Assembly (NCBI GenBank): GCA_963701685.1
Contig: OY969625.1
Span: 2,170,879-2,234,878 of the forward strand
Direction: 5' to 3'
DNA from: an uncultured Acidobacteriaceae bacterium
Lineage (GTDB): Bacteria; Acidobacteriota; Terriglobia; Terriglobales; Acidobacteriaceae
DNA length: 64,000 nucleotides
A program made the position numbers and the translations under genes. The first letter of the stretch is position 1, and the number at the start of each line of letters is the position of its first letter. The notes under the pieces were generated by a model. The model was not told the origin of the DNA and ran no database searches. It saw only the letters and a program-made list of their open reading frames with translations. Shown one piece after another: positions 1,999-53,790 of this stretch.

Positions 1999-2934
1999 CT
2001 ACTTTTTCTTGAGGGCTTCGAGTTCGTCGAGGGTACGGGGCCAGTCGGAGCCGAGGAGGCGGGAGAGGCTGCGGTCGGCGAGGACTTTGCCGTTGGTCTG
2101 GCAGGTGGGGCAGTAGTTAGTTTCGTTGTCGGCGTAGCGGATTCGCTGGATGGGCGAGCTGCAACGGGGGCAGGGCTGGAGGTAGCGGCCGTGCGCGGCC
2201 ATGTCGGGGCGGAAGGCGGTGACCTTTTCGGGGAAGGATTTTTCAGCTTCGGTGTTGAAGCGGGCTACCCAGCTGTTGAGCGTGTCACGCGTGGCGGTGT
2301 AGAGGCGCTGGAATTCTTCGGGGGTTAGCTTGCGGGTTTGGGCGAGGGGAGAGAGCTGGGCGGCGTGGAGGATCTCGTCGGAGTAGGCGTTACCGATGCC
2401 GGAGAGGATGCGGGGATCGGTGAGGGCGCGCTTGAGGGTGCGGTTTTCGGTGGTGAGGGTTTGTTGGAAGGCTTCGGGGGTTAGGGCGAGGGGGTCGATG
2501 CCACCGGGGTCGAGATCGGCTAGCGCGGCTTCGCCTCGGACGAGGTGGAGCGAGGCGCGGCGCTTGGTGCCGGCTTCGGTCAGGGTGAGGGTGCCGTTGG
2601 GGAAGTCGAAGGCGGCGAGGTTGTTGCGGCCGTTGAGCGAGGGGCGGGGTTTCTTCGGGTCTAAGTCGCGCCAGTGGAGGCGGCCGGCGATCATCAGGTG
2701 CAGGACTAAAAACCAGGGATCAGGGCCCAGGGTCGAGGGTTCAGAGAACTCGAAGACGATGCGTTTGCCGATGCGGCGGAGGGCGCGGATGCGTTGGCCT
2801 TCGATGGAGTTGATGGGTGGGACGGCGGTGCGGAGGAGAAGTGGCGAGGCGATGCGGAGGTGTTCGAGGGGCTGGTTGAGGACGCGCGGGGTGAGGGCGG
2901 TCAGGTAGGCGGTGATGTCGGGGAGCTCGGGCAT
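1999..2934 (-). CDS. Fpg/Nei family DNA glycosylase / AP lyase
   Basis: Start set at MPELPDI (ATG at 2934), the catalytic Pro2/Glu3 N-terminus. C-terminal C4 zinc finger CPRCSSPIQRIRYADNETNYCPTCQ. The 127-aa upstream extension in the ORF track is Pro/Ser/Thr-rich and was discarded. Confidence 0.85.
   Translation of the reverse strand: MPELPDITAYLTALTPRVLNQPLEHLRIASPLLLRTAVPPINSIEGQRIRALRRIGKRIVFEFSEPSTLGPDPWFLVLHLMIAGRLHWRDLDPKKPRPSLNGRNNLAAFDFPNGTLTLTEAGTKRRASLHLVRGEAALADLDPGGIDPLALTPEAFQQTLTTENRTLKRALTDPRILSGIGNAYSDEILHAAQLSPLAQTRKLTPEEFQRLYTATRDTLNSWVARFNTEAEKSFPEKVTAFRPDMAAHGRYLQPCPRCSSPIQRIRYADNETNYCPTCQTNGKVLADRSLSRLLGSDWPRTLDELEALKKK
2714..2748 (+). repeat. G-rich heptamer array (CAGGGNN)x5, family A, in-frame inside fpg/nei
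   Basis: cagggat cagggcc cagggtc gagggtt cagagaa; read on the minus strand it encodes SEPSTLGPDPW in the glycosylase. Confidence 0.85.
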
Positions 2935-3004
2935 CAGCGATATCGTACATCCCACGCTTGCGCAAGTGTGCGCATGAATCGGGTGCGTGGTTCTTTCTGG
3001 GGAG

Positions 3005-3508
3005 TCAGTCTGCGAGGTGGAGCAGCATCTCGAATTCGAGGATGGTGGGATCGTTGGGGTAGGGTTCGGTGTGGCCGGATTTAAGGAAGCCGTAGCGCTC
3101 GTAAAAGGCAACGGCTGGGGCGTTGTTGCTGACGACCATGAGCTTGAGGGTTTGGATGTGGCGCGCGATTGCCCAGGTGCGGACGGCGTCGATGAGTGCG
3201 GCGCTGAGGCCGGTGCCACGGTGGGAAGGCGCGACCCACATGGAAATAATTTCTGCGCGGGTTGGATTGTGATCGTCGCGGAAGCACGCAACGAGGCCGC
3301 AGGCGCTGCTCGCATCCATGGCGAGGAAGCCGATTTTGTGAACGCCGTCGAGATTTGCAGAACGCTGGAGCCAATCGGCCTCGGTGAGCAGGGCTTCGCG
3401 GGCGTAGGTGCTGCCGAAGGCGGAGGGAGTGTCCTGGAGCGCGCGCAGGCGAACGTCGCGGTAGCTGGCGGCGAGGTCCGGCGTGATGGGAACGAGGTAC
3501 GGCGGCAT
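3005..3508 (-). CDS. GNAT family N-acetyltransferase
   Basis: Start at MPPYLVP (ATG at 3508); acetyl-CoA motif A WVAPSHRGTGLSAALIDAV; C-terminal AFYERYGF. Confidence 0.8.
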   Translation of the reverse strand: MPPYLVPITPDLAASYRDVRLRALQDTPSAFGSTYAREALLTEADWLQRSANLDGVHKIGFLAMDASSACGLVACFRDDHNPTRAEIISMWVAPSHRGTGLSAALIDAVRTWAIARHIQTLKLMVVSNNAPAVAFYERYGFLKSGHTEPYPNDPTILEFEMLLHLAD

Positions 3509-20468: not shown

Positions 20469-21302
20469 TTAGGTGATCTCGAAGACATCCTCTGACTTAG
20501 CGGCTAGCTCTTGCGTGCGGGAGATGACTTTTGCGGCGATGGCGAGGAATTCGCGGCCTCGTGGGGTGGCATCGCCGGCGAGGGAAGCGGGAAGCCCGTT
20601 GTCGCCGCCAGTGCGGATCTGAGGGTCAAGGTCTACGGAGCCAAGGAAGGGCAGGTTGTACTGCTTCGCGGTCTGGCTGGTGGCGCCGGCGCCGAAAACG
20701 TCGACGACGGTGCCGTCTGGGAGGGTCATCTGCGACATGTTTTCTACGAGGCCGAGGACTTCGACGTTGACCTGGTGGAACATCTCGAGAGCCTTGCGGG
20801 CGTCTTGCAAGGCGACCGAGGAGCCGGTTGAGACTACGATGGCTCCGGTTAGGGGGACGGTCTGGACGAGCGAGATGACGACGTCGCCGGTGCCTGGAGG
20901 GAGGTCGATGAGGAGATAGTCGAGTTCGCCCCAGGCCACCTGCTGCAGGAATTGGCGGATGATCTGGTGGAGCATGGGGCCGCGCATGACCATGGGCTTG
21001 TCGCCGGGCGAGATGAGGCCGATGGAGATGAACTTCACGCCGTGCGCGGTGATAGGCTCCATGAGATTTTCGGCGACGATGGAAGGCTGGCGTGTTGCGC
21101 CGAGCATAGTGGGGACGTTGGGGCCATAGATGTCGGCGTCGATGAGGCCGACGCGGTGGCCGAGCTTGGCGAGCGAGACGGCGAGGTTGACGGCTACGGT
21201 GGTCTTGCCGACGCCACCTTTGCCGGAGCCGATGGCTACGATGTGCTGGATGCCGGGAAGGCGTTGCGGACCTTGCGGGGTGGGTGCGTGCTGGTGAGAC
21301 AT
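20469..21302 (-). CDS. apbC: Mrp/ApbC family Fe-S cluster carrier ATPase
   Basis: Start at MSHQHAP (ATG at 21302); deviant Walker A IGSGKGGVGKTT; DADIYGPNVP; LLIDLPPGTGD. Confidence 0.9.
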   Translation of the reverse strand: MSHQHAPTPQGPQRLPGIQHIVAIGSGKGGVGKTTVAVNLAVSLAKLGHRVGLIDADIYGPNVPTMLGATRQPSIVAENLMEPITAHGVKFISIGLISPGDKPMVMRGPMLHQIIRQFLQQVAWGELDYLLIDLPPGTGDVVISLVQTVPLTGAIVVSTGSSVALQDARKALEMFHQVNVEVLGLVENMSQMTLPDGTVVDVFGAGATSQTAKQYNLPFLGSVDLDPQIRTGGDNGLPASLAGDATPRGREFLAIAAKVISRTQELAAKSEDVFEIT

Positions 21303-21330
21303 GAAGACCTCTTCTGGATGGAACTGATGG

Positions 21331-21852
21331 TTAGAGATGCCACTCGGGGGCGAGGATGGCGCGGAGTTCTTTTTTGCGCTGGGTTTCGCCGGAGCGCATC
21401 TCGCGGCGGCGGCCTGCATCTTCGTAGCGGCGGATCTGGTGTTCGGTTTCGGGGACGACTTGGGGGACCTCGATGCGGTTGCCCGAGGAGTCAACGGCAA
21501 CGAAGGTGAGGTACGCGGAAGAAACGTGGCGCAGCGTCTGTTTGCGAACGTCTTCGACCATGGCTTTGACGCCGACCTCCATAGAGGTGCGGAAGGCGCG
21601 GTTGACGCTGGACTTGAGGATGAGGAGATTGCCGACGTGGACGGGTGCGACGAAGTCGAGGTGATCCATGGAGGCGGTGACGACAAAGGAGCGCGCGTGA
21701 CGGCTGGCAGCCATGGCGCCGACGAGATCCATGAACTGCATGAGCCGGCCTCCGAAGAGGTTGCCGAGAGCATTGGTGTCGGCGGGGAAGATGATCTCGC
21801 TGCGTTCAGACTGGGAGGCGCAGACGGTACTGGAACTGGTGCAATCAGTCAT
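21331..21852 (-). CDS. acyl-CoA thioesterase (hotdog fold, YciA-like)
   Basis: Start at MTDCTSS (ATG at 21852); IFPADTNALGNLFGGRLMQFMD and SMEVGVKAMVED. Confidence 0.8.
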   Translation of the reverse strand: MTDCTSSSTVCASQSERSEIIFPADTNALGNLFGGRLMQFMDLVGAMAASRHARSFVVTASMDHLDFVAPVHVGNLLILKSSVNRAFRTSMEVGVKAMVEDVRKQTLRHVSSAYLTFVAVDSSGNRIEVPQVVPETEHQIRRYEDAGRRREMRSGETQRKKELRAILAPEWHL

Positions 21853-26119: not shown

Positions 26120-27115
26120 CTACTCGGTGCGGCCGGGACGGGTCATGAGGTCGCGGATGGCATCGAGTGGGGGCTTTTGCTCGTGGAGGATCGCGGCCAT
26201 TTGTTCGGTGATGGGCATTTCTACGCCGTAGCGTTTGGCGAGGCCTAGAGCAGCGGTGGTGGTTAGGACGCCTTCGGCGACTTTGCCATTGAGGCCGGCG
26301 ATGATGTCGTTTAGCTGGCGGCCTTTGCCTAGCTCGACGCCGACGGTGCGGTTGCGGGAGAGGCCTCCGGTGCAGGTGAGGACGAGGTCGCCGATACCGG
26401 AGAGGCCGGACATGGTCTCGCGGCGGCCGCCGCAGGCCATGGCGAGGCGGGTGATCTCGGCGATGCCGCGGGTGATGAGCGCGGAGGTTGCGTTGTTGCC
26501 GAGTTCGAGACCGGTGACGACTCCGGCGGCGAGGGCGATGACGTTCTTGAGGGCGCCTCCGAGCTCGGTGCCGATGACGTCTTCATTGCGGTAGGTGCGG
26601 AGCGAGGCGGAACTGAAGTCGTCCTGGAGGGACTTGCCGAGGGTTGGGTCGTCTACGGCTAGCGTGATGGCTGTTGGCATTGCCGCGGCGACTTCGTAGG
26701 CGAAGGATGGGCCGCCGAGCGTGCCGATGGGGTTTTCCGGGGCGTACTCGAACATGATCTGCGACATACGCAGGAAGGTCTTCTCCTCGATGCCTTTGCT
26801 GGCGGAGAGCAGAACCTGGCGAGCGGTGATGACCGGAGCGATCTGCACCATGATGGAGCGCAGGGCCTGCGAGGGCGTGACGCAGAGGATGATGTCGGCG
26901 CCGGCGATGGCTGCGGTGAGGTCGTGGGTGATGGCGACGTCGGCGGGGAGGATGAAGCCGGGAAGATAGCGGGTGTTCTCGCCGGTGTCGGCTAGGCTTG
27001 CGGCGTGGTCTGGCGAGTGCGCCCAAAGGGTGAGTCGATGGCCTCCGCGACGGGCGAGTGAGACGGTGAGGGCGGTTCCCCAGGCGCCGGCACCGATGAC
27101 TGCGATGCGGCTCAT
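26120..27115 (-). CDS. gpsA: NAD(P)H-dependent glycerol-3-phosphate dehydrogenase
   Basis: Start at MSRIAVIGAGAWGTAL (ATG at 27115); GALKNVIALAAG; SRNRTVGVELGKG. Confidence 0.9.
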   Translation of the reverse strand: MSRIAVIGAGAWGTALTVSLARRGGHRLTLWAHSPDHAASLADTGENTRYLPGFILPADVAITHDLTAAIAGADIILCVTPSQALRSIMVQIAPVITARQVLLSASKGIEEKTFLRMSQIMFEYAPENPIGTLGGPSFAYEVAAAMPTAITLAVDDPTLGKSLQDDFSSASLRTYRNEDVIGTELGGALKNVIALAAGVVTGLELGNNATSALITRGIAEITRLAMACGGRRETMSGLSGIGDLVLTCTGGLSRNRTVGVELGKGRQLNDIIAGLNGKVAEGVLTTTAALGLAKRYGVEMPITEQMAAILHEQKPPLDAIRDLMTRPGRTE

Positions 27116-27759
27116 GCGTTGGCCTGCGTATTCTCGGGATCGGTGGTCTTCTTGCTGCCGAAGCGGCTTTCGGTGCCCTTGAGCAGGCGTCCGATGTTTG
27201 CGTGGTGCTTGAGGATGCTGAGCAGGGAGATGAAGCTGAGGCCGATGAGCAGCGCGGTGGAGCGTTGTGGCACCAGCCACAGGGCCAGGAACGGGATGGA
27301 GACGGCCGCGAGGATGGAGCCCAGGGAGACGAGGCGGGTGATCGCGACGATCAGGGCGAAGACTCCGACGGAGGCGAGTGCGACCATGGGCACGAGGGCA
27401 ATGAAGACACCGAGCGCGGTGGCGATGCCTTTGCCGCCTTTGAAGCGTAGCCAGATCGGGAAGACGTGGCCGATGACGGCGGCTACCGCGGCGGCGATGG
27501 CGAGCGTCGAAGGTCCGTTGGCGGTATTAGGGGCGAACTGCATGGCGAGGAATGCGGCGATGAAGCCCTTCATGGCGTCGAGGAGGAGGGTGAAGACGCC
27601 GAGGGTTGCTCCGCCGGCGCGGGCTACGTTTGTGGCGCCGATGTTGCCGCTGCCGGTGTCGCGGACGTCTTCCTGGCGGACGAAACGGACGAGGAGGTAG
27701 CCGAAGGGGATCGAGCCGAGCAGATACGCCGTCGTCAGGGTAATGATCCAGAGAGTCAT
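27112..27759 (-). CDS. plsY: glycerol-3-phosphate acyltransferase PlsY
   Basis: GSIPFGYL, GSGNIGATNV, FKGGKGIAT; the stop overlaps the gpsA start (ATGA). Confidence 0.9.
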   Translation of the reverse strand: MTLWIITLTTAYLLGSIPFGYLLVRFVRQEDVRDTGSGNIGATNVARAGGATLGVFTLLLDAMKGFIAAFLAMQFAPNTANGPSTLAIAAAVAAVIGHVFPIWLRFKGGKGIATALGVFIALVPMVALASVGVFALIVAITRLVSLGSILAAVSIPFLALWLVPQRSTALLIGLSFISLLSILKHHANIGRLLKGTESRFGSKKTTDPENTQANA

Positions 27760-30194: not shown

Positions 30195-30553
30195 AACAAA
30201 GGCGGTTACGCGCGGTTGGGTTGACCGGGGGCCTTTGACCCCCGGCAGTCTATGTCGGGCCTTCAGCCTTCCGATGGTGGGGCGGTGTTGACCTGGGCCT
30301 TCGGCCCAGGCTGGTATATGCCGGGCCGTTGGCCCTCGCTTGCGGGTGGGTTGGGCCGTGGCGCTGGCTTGCTTGTGTGTCGGGGAGTGAGAGGGGTTGA
30401 TTTAATTGTACGTGGTGGGTGGGGGTAAGTATGCCAAGTTGTTGGGAGAGAAATCGGCAATGGGGATGCGGGTTTTGTAGCTTTTGAGGGGTGGTGGGGG
30501 GTTGACATGCGAATTTTGGGGTGTTTTTGGGGGTGGTGGGGGATTATCTTTTT

Positions 30554-35509: not shown

Positions 35510-36067
35510 TTACTTTTTGGGTCGCGACTCCGGCGGCACGAGACCTTCGAGGCGGTAATACACAACGAGCTGGCCGTAGTGTTCGCCGCTATGTTCGATG
35601 ATGCCGTAGGCCATGTCGAGGACGCGCGATTTCTGCCCGGGGAAATACTCAAACTCCGTCGTCATACCGTTTTCGCCTTGCGCCTGGATGGCGGCTGCGC
35701 CATCGGCGAAAGCTTTCTTGACGAACGCAACGACGTCGGCCTTGGTTTTATATTGCTCGCGCTTCGGATCTGCCGTGGGAAGCTTCTGCCGCGTCACCGT
35801 ATTCGTGAAGTAGTAGCAGGAACCCGCCGCGTGCAGCAACTGCTCGGCAAAGGTCCGCTGCGCGGGTGTGGGCTTGTAGTCATACTTGTCTTCGGGAAAA
35901 TCTTCGGCCATCACCGTGAGCTTCCGGCCAATCTCATTCCAGGAATCGAGCACGACTTTCACTTCCGGCTCGGCAGGTTTGGCTGTGTCTTTCTTCATCG
36001 TGTCCTGGGCACGGGCGGCAAAGCCACATGCCAACAGGACGATAGCGAGAAACGGTAGTCTTTTCAT
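35510..36067 (-). CDS. secreted DinB family protein
   Basis: Start at MKRLPFLAIVLLACGFAARAQ (ATG at 36067); C-terminal IEHSGEHYGQLVVYYRLEGLVPP, typical of the DinB four-helix bundle. Confidence 0.8.
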   Translation of the reverse strand: MKRLPFLAIVLLACGFAARAQDTMKKDTAKPAEPEVKVVLDSWNEIGRKLTVMAEDFPEDKYDYKPTPAQRTFAEQLLHAAGSCYYFTNTVTRQKLPTADPKREQYKTKADVVAFVKKAFADGAAAIQAQGENGMTTEFEYFPGQKSRVLDMAYGIIEHSGEHYGQLVVYYRLEGLVPPESRPKK

Positions 36068-36110
36068 TTCTTTCTCCAGGATTGAGTTTCGCGAATCAAG
36101 CCTACGCTTC

Positions 36111-36623
36111 TTATTTCGCCTGCGTGAGCCCCGTAACAACTGCGGCAACTTTATCGAGTGTCTCGTTCCAACCCTCCCATTGTCCGCTCTCCTTTGCGCT
36201 CGCCATGGGTTCATTTCCGATGAAGGTGAGTTTCGTTCTGCCGTTTCCGAGATCCTCAAAGAGGGTCACGTCGTACGCCCCGTCGATGGCTCCCTGTTCT
36301 ATTCCCAAGTCTGCAGGATCAATCTTGTTTCCCTTCGCGTCCGAAAAATACATCAGGGAGACGATCTTCTCATGCGGAACAATCTCGAAGTATTCGACTG
36401 CATTCCAGCCGCAGATCTGCCCATCCGGCGCCTGCATGCAGCAGAGAAGCTTTCCGCCAACGCGAAAATCCATCTCGCACGCGGGGCAGCTAAAGCCCTT
36501 CGGCCCCCACCACTGCATGATGTACTTCGGGTCGGTCCAAGCCTTCCAGACCAGTTCGCGTGGAGCATCAAAAATTCTTGTAACGACCATCCGCTCGATT
36601 TCGTTAACTATGTTTTCTGCCAT
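36111..36623 (-). CDS. SRPBCC (AHSA1/START-like) domain protein
   Basis: RIFDAPRELVWKAWTDPKYIMQWWGPKGF is the Aha1-like SRPBCC N-terminal signature. Confidence 0.85.
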   Translation of the reverse strand: MAENIVNEIERMVVTRIFDAPRELVWKAWTDPKYIMQWWGPKGFSCPACEMDFRVGGKLLCCMQAPDGQICGWNAVEYFEIVPHEKIVSLMYFSDAKGNKIDPADLGIEQGAIDGAYDVTLFEDLGNGRTKLTFIGNEPMASAKESGQWEGWNETLDKVAAVVTGLTQAK

Positions 36624-36957
36624 TTCTGGCCTCCTCTTTCTTCATTTGATTGACAACGACTTCGAGCTTGTCGAAGCTGTCTTCCCAGAATCGGCGATAG
36701 CTGATTGCCCAGTCGCTGACCGTCTTGATTGCTTCGGGCCTGAGCGTGCACACACTCTCTCGTCCACGCTTGGTCTTGGTCACAATCCGCGCCCGTACCA
36801 GGGTTGCGATATGTTTTGAAATCATCTGCTGCGAGAGCGAAAACGGTTCCGTCAATCCATGCACAGAGGCAGGCCCGTGGGAGAGCCGTTGGATCATTGC
36901 CCGGCGGGTTGGATCAGACAAAGCCGCAAACGTTGTACCAAGTTTATCCACAACCAT
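36604..36957 (-). CDS. ArsR/SmtB family transcriptional regulator
   Basis: FAALSDPTRRAMIQRLSHGPASVHGLTEPFSLSQQMISKHIATL (wHTH); the 3' end overlaps the SRPBCC start by 20 nt, the usual ArsR-SRPBCC pairing. Confidence 0.85.
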   Translation of the reverse strand: MVVDKLGTTFAALSDPTRRAMIQRLSHGPASVHGLTEPFSLSQQMISKHIATLVRARIVTKTKRGRESVCTLRPEAIKTVSDWAISYRRFWEDSFDKLEVVVNQMKKEEARNGRKHS

Positions 36958-43185: not shown

Positions 43186-43292
43186 TAGTGTACCGGGTTT
43201 CCCTACTGCGCACCTATCGACCCGTTACCGTTGCTTCCTTCCGGACCTGGCGGGGTTGGCGGGAATAGATCGCGTAGGACCCGGCACATAAG
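43186..43292 (-). ncRNA. ffs: signal recognition particle RNA (small 4.5S type)
   Basis: Minus strand contains CCAGGTCCGGAAGGAAGCAACGG, which matches the conserved domain IV AGGUCCGGAAGGAAGCA including the GGAA tetraloop. Closing helix GTGCCGGGT (43287-43279) pairs with ACCCGGTAC (43198-43190). Ends are approximate. Confidence 0.7.
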
Positions 43293-45613: not shown

Positions 45614-46078
45614 CTAGTAATTCACCGTCGGTGTTGTCGGCTTTACTTCAATCAAAGTGTGGGCCTCATCGATCACGGTGACGCGGAAAAAGTTATTTGG
45701 GTCGTCCACTTGCTCAGGCAACTGACGATATTCCACCGAGGCAATATATGAGCATGATTTCGGCTGAGTGCCGTCGGCTAGCCAGTATTTTTTAGACGCG
45801 ATGTACTCATGGGCGCTCGCGACAAGCATTTGCCACGCGTTCTGGTTTGGCCCGTCAAGGAATGAGACGAGTGGCTCACCGTGGGCTGGAAATGTCACTT
45901 TGAAGCGAAAAACTCCGGTCATGTGTGCAAGTCGGGCTATTGGAGGGTAGGTGGGAAACGTGGTGTCGATTATATGAAAGCGGCCGCACGAAGCTTGCTG
46001 TGCACGAGCGACTGGCGCAAGTGTAGCGGCGGTCAGGAGTACGATTGCTAATTTTGTGCTTGAACGGGTTGGAGCCAT
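45614..46078 (-). CDS. secreted protein with TonB-C-terminal-like domain, low GC
   Basis: Start at MAPTRSSTKLAIVLLTAATLAPVARAQ (ATG at 46078). PTYPPIARLAHMTGVFRFKVTF resembles the TonB_C YP..A....G.V motif. Tentative. Confidence 0.45.
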   Translation of the reverse strand: MAPTRSSTKLAIVLLTAATLAPVARAQQASCGRFHIIDTTFPTYPPIARLAHMTGVFRFKVTFPAHGEPLVSFLDGPNQNAWQMLVASAHEYIASKKYWLADGTQPKSCSYIASVEYRQLPEQVDDPNNFFRVTVIDEAHTLIEVKPTTPTVNY

Positions 46079-46118
46079 TTGATCTCCTTGAGGGGGCACA
46101 CTGATAAACTTACCTCTT

Positions 46119-49037
46119 ATGCGCAACCTCAGTGGTAATCAGATTCGGGAAGATTTTTTGCGGTTTTTTGAGACGAAGGGGCATCGGCGGGTGCACTCGT
46201 CTTCTTTGGTGCCGGCGAATGATCCTACGCTGCTGTTTACGAATGCGGGGATGAATCAGTTTAAGGATGTGTTTTTGGGGGCGGAGACGCGGGTGTATTC
46301 GCGGGCGGCGTCGAGCCAGAAGTGCGTGCGGGCGGGTGGGAAGCATAACGATCTGGAGAACGTTGGGTTTACGCGGCGGCACCATACGTTCTTTGAGATG
46401 CTGGGAAATTTTTCGTTTGGAGATTACTTCAAGAAGGATGCGATTGCGTTTGCGTGGGAGTTGCTGACTTCTCCGGATTGGTTTGGGATTGATAAGGACC
46501 GGCTGTATGTGACGGTGTTTGAGGGGAACGAAACTGTTCCGCGGGACGACGAGGCGGAGCGGCTTTGGATTGAGACGGGCGTGCCGAAGGAGCGGATCTT
46601 TGGCATGGGGATGAAGGATAACTTCTGGCAGATGGGCGATACCGGGCCTTGCGGGCCTTGCTCGGAGATTTTTTATGACCTGGGGTTGGCGGCTTCGGAG
46701 ACTGGCGAAGACAAGCCGTTTCCGGAAGACGATCAGCGGTACATGGAGATTTGGAATTTAGTGTTCATGCAGTTTGATCGGGCGAGTGATGGGGTGTTGA
46801 CTCCGCTACCGAAGCCTTCGATCGATACGGGCATGGGGCTGGAGCGCGTGGCTTGCGTGCTGCAGGGGAAGCTTTCGAATTATGAGAGTGATTTGTTTAC
46901 GCCGTTGATTCGGAGGGCGGTGGAGTTGACGGGGTTTGGTGGGGCGTTGTCCGATGTCCGTTCTCCGTTGTCCGTTGAAGAGCTGGCGGTGAGCGATGAG
47001 AAGGGGGCGGCTTCGCTGCGGATTATTGCGGACCATGCTCGGGCTTCTACGTTTTTGATTGCGGATGGGGTGGTGCCGAGCAATGAGGGGCGGGGGTATG
47101 TGCTGCGGAAGATTTTGCGGCGCGGGATTCGGCATGGGCGGCTGTTGGGGCAGGAGAAGCCGTTTATGCATGAGATGGTGCTGGCCGTGAGGGATGAGAT
47201 GGTGGCGGCGTATCCGGAGTTGGCGGAGTCGGCGGAGCGGGTCGCTAAGGTGGTGCTGGCGGAGGAGGAGCAGTTTGCTCGGGTGATGGATGTTGGTTCT
47301 AGAGAACTAAACAATGCTATCGACGAAGCTAAGTACAACGGCTACGTGAAAAATATGTGGGAGTTTTGTTTGAAAGATGGATTTGTGCCGCCCGCTGAAG
47401 ACTGGCTCTACCTTACACGTCAAATAAAATCCGGACGGCGTCAGGAACAGCTTGCAGCGGCATCACGTATCTTCCCAGTTGCCAAATATGGAAACAAATC
47501 CAGAGAACTACTGGACTCCATGTACTCAAATCCGATAGAGCTACCCGGCAAAACGGCGTTCACTCTTTACGAGACTTTCGGCTTGTCCAAAGACTTCATC
47601 GCAGATGCTGCGAGAGATGCAGGTCTCCTCTTCGATGATGAGGGATTCGAGCGGGCTAAGGAAGAGGAGCAGGCGCGGGCGAGGGCTAGTTGGAAGGGTG
47701 GGTCGTCGAAGTCGGCGGCGCCGGTTTATCGGGAGTTGGAGAAGACGGAGTTTGAGGGGTATACCGCGCTGCGTACCGATGGTGCGAAGGTGTTGGCGCT
47801 GGTGAAGGATGGCGTTGGCGTGACGGTGCTGCGGCCTGGGGATGTAGGTGAGGTGGTGTTGGATGCGACGAGTTTCTATGCGGACTCGGGCGGGCAGGTT
47901 GGGGATGTGGGGTGGTTGTATTCCGGGGACCATAACTCGGTGGTCGCCGATGTGACTGGTTGCAAGAAGCCGGTGCAGGGGGTGTTTGCGCACCAGGTGG
48001 TGGTGAAGCAGACGATTGCTGTTGGCGATGTGGTGGATGCTGTGGTGGATGGGGCGGTGCGGGCGGCGGTGATGCGGAATCATACGGGGACGCATTTGCT
48101 GCATGCGGCGTTGAGGCAGGTGCTGGGGACGCATGTGAAGCAGGCTGGGTCGTTGAATGACCGGTCGCGGCTGCGGTTTGATTTTTCGCACTTTGCGGGT
48201 GTGGCGGAGGAGGAGTTGGCGGAGATTGAGTCGATTGTGAATGCGCAGGTGTTAGCCAACACACCTGTAGTCACGATGGTGGATGTGCCGATTGATGTGG
48301 CCGTGCATGAGCTGGGAGCGATGGCGCTGTTTGGCGAGAAGTATGGCGATAAGGTGCGGGTGGTGAAGATTGGGGAGTTCTCGACGGAGCTTTGCGGTGG
48401 AACGCATACGGGGGCGACGGGGGAGATTGGGTTGGTGAAGCTGATGGGTGAGGGCGCGGTGGCTAGCGGCGTTCGGCGCGTGGAGGCGGTGACGGGGATG
48501 GGGTCGCTGGGGGTGTTTCGGCGGGATGCGGATGTGGCGAAGGTTGCCGGGCAGTTTGTTGGGGGTGGAGATGTGAGTGGGGAGGCGCTGCGGGCTCGGG
48601 TGGCGAGCCAGGAAGAGGAGATGAAGAAGCTAAGGCGGGAGCTGGAGGCGCTGCGGATGAAGTCGGCTACGGCGGCTACTGCGGATGCGGCGGCTTCGGC
48701 TGTGGAGGTTAAGGGGGTTAAGGTTTTGAGTCAGCGGGTGGATGCGCTCGATAAAAGCCAGATGCGGAATTTGGTGGATGAGCTGCGCGGGAAGTTGGGG
48801 TCGGGGGTTGTGGTGCTGGGGGCGGCTTCTTCGGACGGAAAGGTTAGTTTGATTGTTGGGGTTAGTAAGGACCTGACCGGGCGGGTGCAGGCGGGGAAGG
48901 TTGTTGGCGCGATTGCCGCGAAGGTTGGGGGGAAGGGTGGTGGGAGGCCGGATTTGGCGGAGGCTGGCGGGACGGATGTAGCCGGGTTGGATGCGGCGCT
49001 GGCGGGGGCGAGGGATGTGGTGGAGGAGATGCTGTAA
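46119..49037 (+). CDS. alaS: alanine--tRNA ligase (with two in-frame insertions)
   Basis: [45 protein letters not shown], editing-domain HTGTHLLH, C-terminal [15 protein letters not shown]. At 972 aa it is about 90 aa longer than usual. Confidence 0.95.
46946..46980 (+). repeat. family B heptamer array inside alaS
   Basis: gttgtcc gatgtcc gttctcc gttgtcc gttgaag; encodes [13 protein letters not shown]. Confidence 0.9.
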
Positions 49038-53714: not shown

Positions 53715-53790
53715 GCCGACGTAGCTCAGTTGGTAGAGCAGCTGATTCGTAATCAGCAGGTCAACGGTTCAAGTCCGTTCGTCGGCTCCA
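53715..53790 (+). tRNA. tRNA-Thr (anticodon CGT), CCA encoded
   Basis: Acceptor GCCGACG/CGTCGGC, D arm GCTC-AGTTGGTA-GAGC, anticodon stem GCTGA/TCAGC with loop TTCGTAA, T arm AACGG-TTCAAGT-CCGTT, discriminator T plus CCA. Confidence 0.95.

Follow-up and report, generated by a model that had tools for sequence, protein, structure and literature searches.

This report concerns alaS, the gene for alanyl-tRNA synthetase (AlaRS), in a 64,000-nucleotide (64-kb) stretch of contig OY969625.1 from an uncultured bacterium of the Acidobacteriaceae. The whole stretch will be referred to as the window, and all positions are given in its numbering. The gene contains a 201-nt block that, judging from sequence and alignment, is genuine and translated and expands a helix-loop, in frame, in the part of the enzyme that recognizes tRNA. 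Together with the 47 conserved codons that follow it, this block forms a non-native patch of about 353 nt, from 47298 to about 47650. The insert is best described as one allele, found in this genome, of a hypervariable cassette kept at the same site by nearly all Terriglobia. The most likely explanation, with a probability of about 0.5, is that homologous recombination between conserved flanks brought in this cassette allele. The initial observation, from a sequence-only reading of the window, is correct and highly non-random, and the window on its own provides a clean case of a mosaic essential gene.

The domain set of a class II bacterial-type AlaRS is found in full in the alaS product. Pfam identifies PF01411 (tRNA-synt_2c, 2.2e-189) in two stretches with the insert between them, together with PF07973 (tRNA_SAD, 2.7e-15) and the C-terminal PF02272 (DHHA1, 2.8e-16), and the structure of E. 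coli AlaRS (3HXU) is matched with E = 2.8e-145. The best matches to the gene, with 76–79% identity, are from a metagenome-assembled genome (MAG), Granulicella MAGs, and Bryocella elongata, and the window, by its sequence, belongs to the Acidobacteriaceae. The features of the gene are as follows.

46119..49037, plus strand: alaS, alanyl-tRNA synthetase, 972 amino acids (intact open reading frame; Pfam; match to E. coli 3HXU)
46920..46990, plus strand: second hypervariable loop of alaS, 24 residues, with native codons here and serving as internal control (amino-acid conservation 0.13–0.5)
47244..47297, plus strand: 5′ conserved block of 18 residues, native G-ending codons, near-identical nucleotides across related species; likely the left homology arm
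47298..47309, plus strand: direct repeat copy 1, TCTAGAGAACTA, encoding SREL (sequence)
47310..47498, plus strand: unique insert core of 63 codons, orphan (no homologue, no Pfam family)
47499..47510, plus strand: direct repeat copy 2, TCCAGAGAACTA, encoding SREL, 11 of 12 bases as in copy 1 (sequence)
47511..47648, plus strand: conserved AlaRS segment in non-native codons, the 3′ part of the cassette (codon score z = -4.9; identity to relatives)
47556..47582, plus strand: AFTLYETFG, equivalent of E. coli A-F-R-L-Y399-D400-T-Y-G403 (alignment to 3HXU)
47649..47705, plus strand: 3′ conserved block of 18 residues, native codons, near-identical nucleotides across species; likely the right homology arm

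In the window AlaRS, the EExxF block is separated from the AFxLY(D/E)T(Y/F)G block by 94 residues, compared to 27–31 in canonical bacterial enzymes. The sequence-only reading had reported a 12-nt direct repeat with copies 201 nt apart, both encoding SREL in frame, and this is confirmed, with 11 of the 12 bases alike. It had further proposed that dropping one copy and the intervening DNA restores the canonical spacing, and the arithmetic agrees, as 94 - 67 = 27 residues are left. In the alignment to 3HXU, residue 399 of the window protein is equivalent to E. coli residue 379 and residue 474 to residue 388, which places the insert between these two E. coli positions and gives about 66–67 extra residues. 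Repeat copy 1 occupies the position of the conserved G-S-R-E-L helix start of the relatives and already contains the codons AGA, GAA, and CTA, which this genome rarely uses. The reading frame is kept throughout the 353-nt patch, and both junctions are located exactly at codon boundaries in a sensible alignment.

The patch stands out from a chromosome region with extreme strand asymmetry. The plus strand of the window contains 40.6% G and 21.5% C, with a mean GC skew of 0.30, and third codon positions are about 60% G in the plus-strand genes and about 70% C, in their own sense, in the minus-strand genes. The intergenic DNA also has more G than C (0.34 and 0.22), though it is far less skewed. 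Along alaS the GC skew is +0.4 to +0.6 and drops to about -0.1 in the patch. The third positions are A 27%, C 28%, G 21%, and T 23% in the segment 47298–47660, compared to A 2.7%, C 10%, G 62%, and T 25% in the rest of the gene. With a codon score corrected for amino-acid content, the insert has z = -5.9 and the 47 conserved codons on its 3′ side have z = -4.9, relative to 1063 windows of plus-strand genes. In a separate scan of 3023 forty-codon windows from the 43 genes of the 64 kb, the lowest scores are also those of the patch. The proposed test of codons and third positions thus gives a significant deviation, and the claim that codons unlike those of the rest of the gene run across the patch, conserved residues included, is borne out. 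The edges of the patch are sharp. The switch occurs directly after the Gly codon at 47295–47297, and the patch ends at about 47648. As the non-native codons reach conserved AlaRS residues, the simplest unit is a block of an alaS allele rather than a foreign element.

On a codon index that equals 0 for uniform synonymous choice and 1 for native usage, the loop at 46920–46990 has a value of 0.77 and the insert -0.33, so low constraint alone does not give flat codons here. Only two stretches of more than 300 nt in the window are free of the plus-strand G excess, and the patch is one of them. The other one, at 35.5–37.0 kb, is an island of three minus-strand genes (35510–36957) for a DinB-family protein, an AHSA1/SRPBCC protein, and an ArsR-type regulator. 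These genes have no strand skew and an atypical composition, and they look like a small recently acquired island. Since the intergenic DNA carries the excess of G over C, and since the only other skew-free stretch is this island, absence of skew marks newcomers here, and it is a reasonable marker in this genome of DNA that has not been resident for long. Another low-scoring codon window, 20469–21773, was rejected as a mis-called N-terminal extension, and those at 1999–3315 and 26120–27280 are assumed to be mis-called extensions as well.

The comparison with relatives shows a mosaic profile. Relative to the two closest relatives (loci L081 and L057), nucleotide identity drops from 90–96% in the flanks to 51–64% in the conserved segment at the 3′ side of the cassette and to about 38% in the insert. 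Where the residues are identical, the fraction of positions with the same codon is 0.46 in the cassette and 0.79 in the flanks (p = 6e-4), and 0.41 and 0.75 (p = 2e-3). Positive selection on the protein alone cannot produce such a synonymous excess. The insert-free allele L057 has native codons throughout the region. Moreover, contigs from peat metagenomes that match both flanks with at least 90% identity leave a depth of zero across 47307–47639, with joints at 47281/47640, 47291/47654, and 47299/47683. The flank blocks are near-identical in nucleotides across a dozen species, which hides the true crossovers, and as a result every lineage seems to share the cassette boundaries. The possibility that these blocks are a recognition site was rejected, as their synonymous conservation is not above that of the rest of the gene. 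Homologous inserts have diverged no more than their flanks, and at fourfold sites they are closer than the flanks (0.86 vs 0.62, 0.57 vs 0.41, and 0.79 vs 0.57), so the cassettes are not intrinsically fast-evolving.

The alaS genes of many relatives are patchworks of segments rich in G or in C at third positions (G3-rich or C3-rich). Such segments alternate in L137, L085, L010, L009, L134, and L117. The alternation suggests exchange between genomes that have alaS on opposite replication strands, or chimeric metagenome assemblies.

From this profile we infer a replacement of one alaS allele segment by another. The unit exchanged would extend from 47298 to about 47650, comprising the insert and the next 47 codons, and it would have been installed as one block by allelic replacement rather than having evolved under the strand-biased regime of this chromosome. 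The near-invariant nucleotide blocks on either side (EEEQFARV..G on the left and the 18-residue block on the right) would provide the homology arms. The donor would be an Acidobacteriaceae-type alaS allele, with LYETFG and DAARDAG, that already held the insertion. The sequence-only reading had suggested a recombination tract, and this suggestion fits best with the sharp edges, the conserved residues in non-native codons, and the synonymous excess; the donor that it presupposes was not found.

The insertion site is hypervariable across the class. Related alaS loci were sampled from species-representative genomes (80 loci) and from metagenomes (80 loci), and 95 Terriglobia loci could be parsed. 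At least 45 residues separate the conserved Gly from the AF motif in 79 of these 95. The suggested comparison with orthologues therefore shows a loop insert of differing content in most of the clade, a clade-wide hot spot rather than a one-off event. The 91 inserts of at least 25 amino acids fall into 64 families (BLASTP E < 1e-3), of which 47 have a single member, and the Terriglobia inserts span 20–110 extra residues. Inserts that are unrelated and differ in length are found even in pairs of loci with protein flanks that are 94–95% identical (L120 and L121, and L081 and the window). Fragments of related AlaRS enzymes likewise have differing, unrelated inserts at the same place, with a few having no insert. 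Literature searches turned up nothing relevant on this AlaRS insertion or on such extreme skew in Acidobacteriaceae. A clade-wide cassette with uniform codons beside the G3:U70 reader, of which no description was found, is more interesting than the result for the window itself.

Inserts at the same AlaRS loop are also present in some Neisseria, Eikenella, Methylotenera, and Rhodocyclaceae. Those in L041, L043 (Neisseria), L044 (Eikenella), L048, L069, and L061 have about 16 to 90 extra residues. Their presence in unrelated Betaproteobacteria indicates that this loop tolerates insertion well beyond Acidobacteria. The insert of L060, from a Rhodocyclaceae MAG, has about 110 extra residues (about 130 amino acids variable) with a D...E-V-K pattern, and its third positions are flat in a gene that is C3/G3-rich.

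A different kind of element was observed in the other variable loop of alaS. Loci L019, L148, L149, and L152 have one or two copies of an in-frame double-hairpin repeat, GGGCACGACTTCAGTCGTGCC ... GGGGCTTTAGCCCC, encoding GHDFSRAE...GALAPEG, in the loop equivalent to positions 46920–46990 of the window. This repeat resembles the Rickettsia palindromic elements, and it does not occur in the 64-kb window.

A structure was predicted with AlphaFold for residues 338–594, using 59 aligned relatives. The best structural matches of this model are AlaRS structures. In the model, the long helix ending in ...VMDVGSREL runs on for about 26 residues, and return helices lead back to the strand and turn of IELPGKTAF. 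The block-mean predicted local distance difference test (pLDDT) values over the insert are 76–95, to be read with caution for a sequence that has no homologues. The insert is thus predicted to lengthen a surface helical hairpin beside the site that reads the acceptor stem, with the catalytic core undisturbed. This model, which had been proposed as a check, locates the hairpin 12–20 residues ahead of the G3:U70-reading motif, Y-(D/E)-T-(Y/F)-G.

According to PMC6055181, Tyr399, Asp400, and Gly403 of E. coli AlaRS contact G3:U70, with Asp400, called strictly conserved, hydrogen-bonded to G3, and the D400A and D400N mutants are described as inactive or nearly so. The residue numbering of the 3HXU chain is that of the literature minus one. 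As the motif of the window aligns with these contact residues, the cassette includes the minor-groove reader of the identity pair. The Tyr and Gly residues are kept in the LYETFG motif of the window (47568–47582), and the position of Asp400 is occupied by Glu (47571–47573). Glu is found at this position in 78 of the 95 Terriglobia loci, and Asp in 36 of the 37 other bacteria of the set. Few enzymes of translation are as conserved as AlaRS, and its recognition of the single G3:U70 pair is a textbook invariant. A class-wide hypervariable cassette near the G3:U70 contacts and a Glu residue at the Asp400 position are both unexpected for the evolution of a synthetase. They raise the question of whether the surface of the cassette may tune which G3:U70 RNAs are charged. 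A further question is what sets third-position composition under such extreme strand skew, given that an island of 350 nt escapes it.

The insert is an orphan at the protein level. It is open and protein-like in its first and second codon positions, and the pooled cassettes of the clade have the same property, with residues rich in Leu, Ala, and Glu. The sequence-only reading recognized nothing in the 67-residue block, and searches of protein, viral, plasmid, phage, and Pfam collections were indeed empty apart from two spurious matches. These two (P0121 and P0122) came from a HMMER search of the insert against 1.84 billion cluster representatives, and they are eukaryote-like tandem-repeat proteins. 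This search is blind to inserts within cluster members, as AlaRS enzymes more than 50% identical share one representative. A word-indexed search with the insert alone against 5.8 billion clusters at 90% identity found nothing, and there was no match to the insert in viral contigs, plasmids, or phages and no Pfam family in it. Nor does the insert duplicate any other part of AlaRS, as BLASTP against the whole protein finds nothing. A templated copy from nearby DNA was rejected as well, with no copy of the patch found by blastn or tblastx in the masked 64-kb window and 80 related loci, and no copy of the insert occurs among all 160 related loci. Two further readings of the patch were rejected. 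An overlapping gene in another frame or on the other strand, which might have accounted for the flat third positions and for little synonymous change, is not consistent with the data, since no frame is consistently open in the 79 cassettes. A structured RNA in the patch is not indicated either, with a minimum free energy z of -0.22 relative to shuffles and nothing in Rfam at this position.

The first protein search gave only alaS fragments, each of at most 323 amino acids. Silent partial copies of alaS that might act as donors were considered in this context and rejected, as the short PF01411 proteins are pieces of full-length alaS genes broken by frameshifts in error-prone assemblies. Many public long-read Acidobacteriaceae MAGs (L161 and P0001–P0120) have alaS in 4–5 called pieces due to frameshifts, which are probably errors at G homopolymers.

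The 12-nt repeat is probably a true short duplication. Among the 79 cassettes, only that of the window has flanking 12-mers that match in 11 of 12 positions, and none of 395 shuffles reaches this value. For search windows of this kind, an analytic calculation predicts about 0.006 such matches, the test being post hoc. The foreign composition extends 140 nt past the second copy. The repeat is best taken as the junction scar left when the loop became longer in the donor allele, by microhomology-mediated or unequal recombination. A tandem duplication of the junction motif is also observed at the start of the L019 cassette (KTGLVKLDEL ... KAGLSKLDEL, 8 of 10 residues alike, 21 residues apart), which indicates at least one further case of slipped or unequal joining at this junction.

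Several results weigh against import of the cassette by recombination. No donor or reservoir was found in any of the collections searched (proteins, viral contigs, plasmids, and phages), and no donor lineage with a near-identical block; the closest allele of the downstream part (L088) has only 81% amino-acid and 76% nucleotide identity. None of the public sequencing runs contains the patch, those that share the flanks being from other species, and the exact AlaRS protein of the window is absent from the records. The codon usage of the cassettes as a group is a further difficulty. In strongly biased genes, the codon index of the cassette has a median of 0.05 (interquartile range -0.02 to 0.14). 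In the pooled cassettes of 46 such genes, relative synonymous codon usage (RSCU) is near uniform, with a root-mean-square (rms) deviation of 0.063. The pooled cassettes also use codons that seldom occur in any Terriglobia reference (AGA 0.19, CGA 0.22, CTA 0.12, and ATA 0.15), and their usage differs even from that of low-bias Terriglobia alaS genes (0.04 for AGA and 0.08 for CGA). Synonymous changes in the cassettes, polarized with outgroups, are balanced, with 44 toward the base preferred by the host, 43 away from it, and 48 other. The composition looks like a stationary state rather than amelioration after import. Ordinary relatives would not supply a cassette with uniform usage, so simple import does not account for it. 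In favor of import, the third positions of the window insert itself go beyond uniform and tend toward A and C, in the direction opposite to the G and T of the host (A 28, C 22, G 13, and T 18; P = 0.007 relative to uniform choice), a P value that is weakened by selection, the window having been chosen as extreme.

The uniform usage would be natural for an old lineage-specific insertion that has evolved in place, with synonymous sites that escape the drive toward G3 or C3 in the rest of the gene. This drive might be GC-biased gene conversion, which needs a homologous partner, or selection on codon choice, and the cassette would be at its own near-uniform equilibrium. The near-uniform index of almost every cassette, the small RSCU deviation, the balanced synonymous flux, and the lack of a reservoir are all in keeping with this idea, as is the cassette GC content at third positions (GC3), about 0.48 whatever the GC3 of the host, compared to 0.74–0.75. 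In addition, the flanks look recombination-hot, and recognizably related insert families diverge faster than their flanks in protein (51% vs 83%, and 22% vs 66%), so that some of the apparently unrelated inserts could reflect fast divergence. However, the skew of the cassettes ignores that of the host (slope 0.04 +/- 0.04) although the intergenic DNA carries it, and neutral evolution in place should acquire the host skew, so this explanation does not account for the usage either. Escape from GC-biased gene conversion is attractive, but it leaves unexplained the missing skew, the native codons of the second hypervariable loop, and the non-native state of the 47 downstream codons, which do have homologous partners. 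The native codons of the insert-free allele L057 and the opposite lean of the window insert are also difficult to reconcile with evolution in place, which is considered rather unlikely. More speculative, and improbable at present, is that the cassette is a deliberately diversified specificity module, with AlaRS in an arms race with allo-tRNAs, toxins, or phage factors that dock on it. New cassettes would then arise or be exchanged through a process whose sequence output does not depend on the mutational regime of the host, and such a process would explain the uniform, stationary codon usage in the 46 biased genes. In Acidobacteria, allo-tRNAs bearing G3:U70 are carried on toxin-antitoxin and mobile elements (PMC5389517). 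An artifact of assembly, in which the flanks of one Acidobacteriaceae population were joined to the cassette of another via identical blocks of 30–45 nt, is quite improbable. The flank blocks are near-identical across species, many of the related loci are from metagenome bins (several of them mosaic-looking), and the patch and the exact protein are not on record elsewhere, all of which would suit a chimera. On the other hand, flat-codon cassettes are also present in the isolate Bryocella elongata DSM 22489 (L002) and in complete long-read chromosomes (L001 and L005), the frame is kept over 353 nt with junctions at codon boundaries, and the donor population would need uniform codons unlike any Terriglobia reference gene.

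Two kinds of mobile DNA were also considered as the source of the insert. The sequence-only reading had offered a mobile in-frame module with a signature like that of a target-site duplication. Such a module might resemble a Rickettsia palindromic element or a miniature inverted-repeat transposable element (MITE). The 11/12 repeat does border the extra 67 codons exactly, which is unlikely by chance, and the double-hairpin elements in the other alaS loop show that such insertions happen. Nonetheless, this proposal is not supported and is very improbable. Inverted termini are absent in and around the insert, as is a hairpin (with the folding z value given above), no other copy occurs in the 64 kb, the 160 loci, or any collection searched, and the repeat has no counterpart at any of the 78 other cassettes. 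The foreign composition continues beyond the second repeat, and the hairpin element of the other loop is absent from the window. A decayed intein or in-frame endonuclease domain, as the remnant of homing elements that repeatedly invaded the site and co-converted its flank, is hardly credible. The site, in a conserved motif region of an essential gene, is typical for homing, and co-conversion would explain the foreign codons in the adjacent conserved segment. The L060 insert also has a weak similarity, below the Pfam cutoff, to PD-(D/E)xK nucleases (PDDEXK_9, E = 0.035). However, the window insert has 67 residues, compared to about 130 or more in inteins, and has no Pfam match. It has no Cys/Ser/Thr at its start and no His-Asn followed by Cys/Ser/Thr at its end, where it reads ...YGNK and then S. 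Apart from the L060 match, no Hint or endonuclease domain was found in the 10 inserts tested, and the Terriglobia inserts are too small and mutually unrelated. For a diversity-generating retroelement, no part of the patch recurs in the 64 kb as a possible template, reverse transcriptase genes not having been searched systematically.

A few other features of the window were recorded. Directly upstream of alaS, on the minus strand, is an open reading frame of 170 amino acids (45614–46126) with a signal-peptide-like start and little strand skew. It has no match in Pfam, and it may be another newcomer or not a gene. The window also contains an Acido-Lenti-1 small RNA (30292–30336, plus strand), a small signal recognition particle RNA (43188–43286, minus strand), and a tRNA-Thr(CGU) gene (53715–53790, plus strand). 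The Acido-Lenti-1 RNA fits with an acidobacterial origin of the window.

The alaS cassette resembles several known systems in part. The mosaic penA genes of Neisseria and pbp2x genes of Streptococcus also have a divergent, atypical block in a conserved essential gene, with edges in conserved stretches and the frame kept. In alaS, however, the block contains a length-variable, unrelated insert that is always in the same loop, it has no nameable donor, and its uniform codons are unlike those of relatives. Rickettsia palindromic elements likewise add tolerated in-frame residues to a surface loop, but they are palindromic and present in many copies, while the alaS insert is a single-copy, non-palindromic orphan with a short direct repeat; the only true analogue of these elements is the one in the other alaS loop of some relatives. 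The insertion peptides of aminoacyl-tRNA synthetases are similar in being clade-specific loop expansions that leave the catalytic core untouched. They are normally clade-conserved signature indels, whereas the content of the alaS cassette differs between genera and is written in non-native codons. In the hypervariable central domain of flagellin (fliC) and the target-recognition domains of the type I restriction subunit HsdS, conserved arms enclose a variable core that is exchanged as a unit and is often lower in GC, and in HsdS this variable unit sets nucleic-acid specificity. Unlike these, AlaRS is an intracellular, single-copy, essential enzyme of translation with no known reason to vary. 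The likeness lies in the conserved flanks around a core that differs completely between close relatives, and in alaS the variable unit takes in the G3:U70-reading motif.

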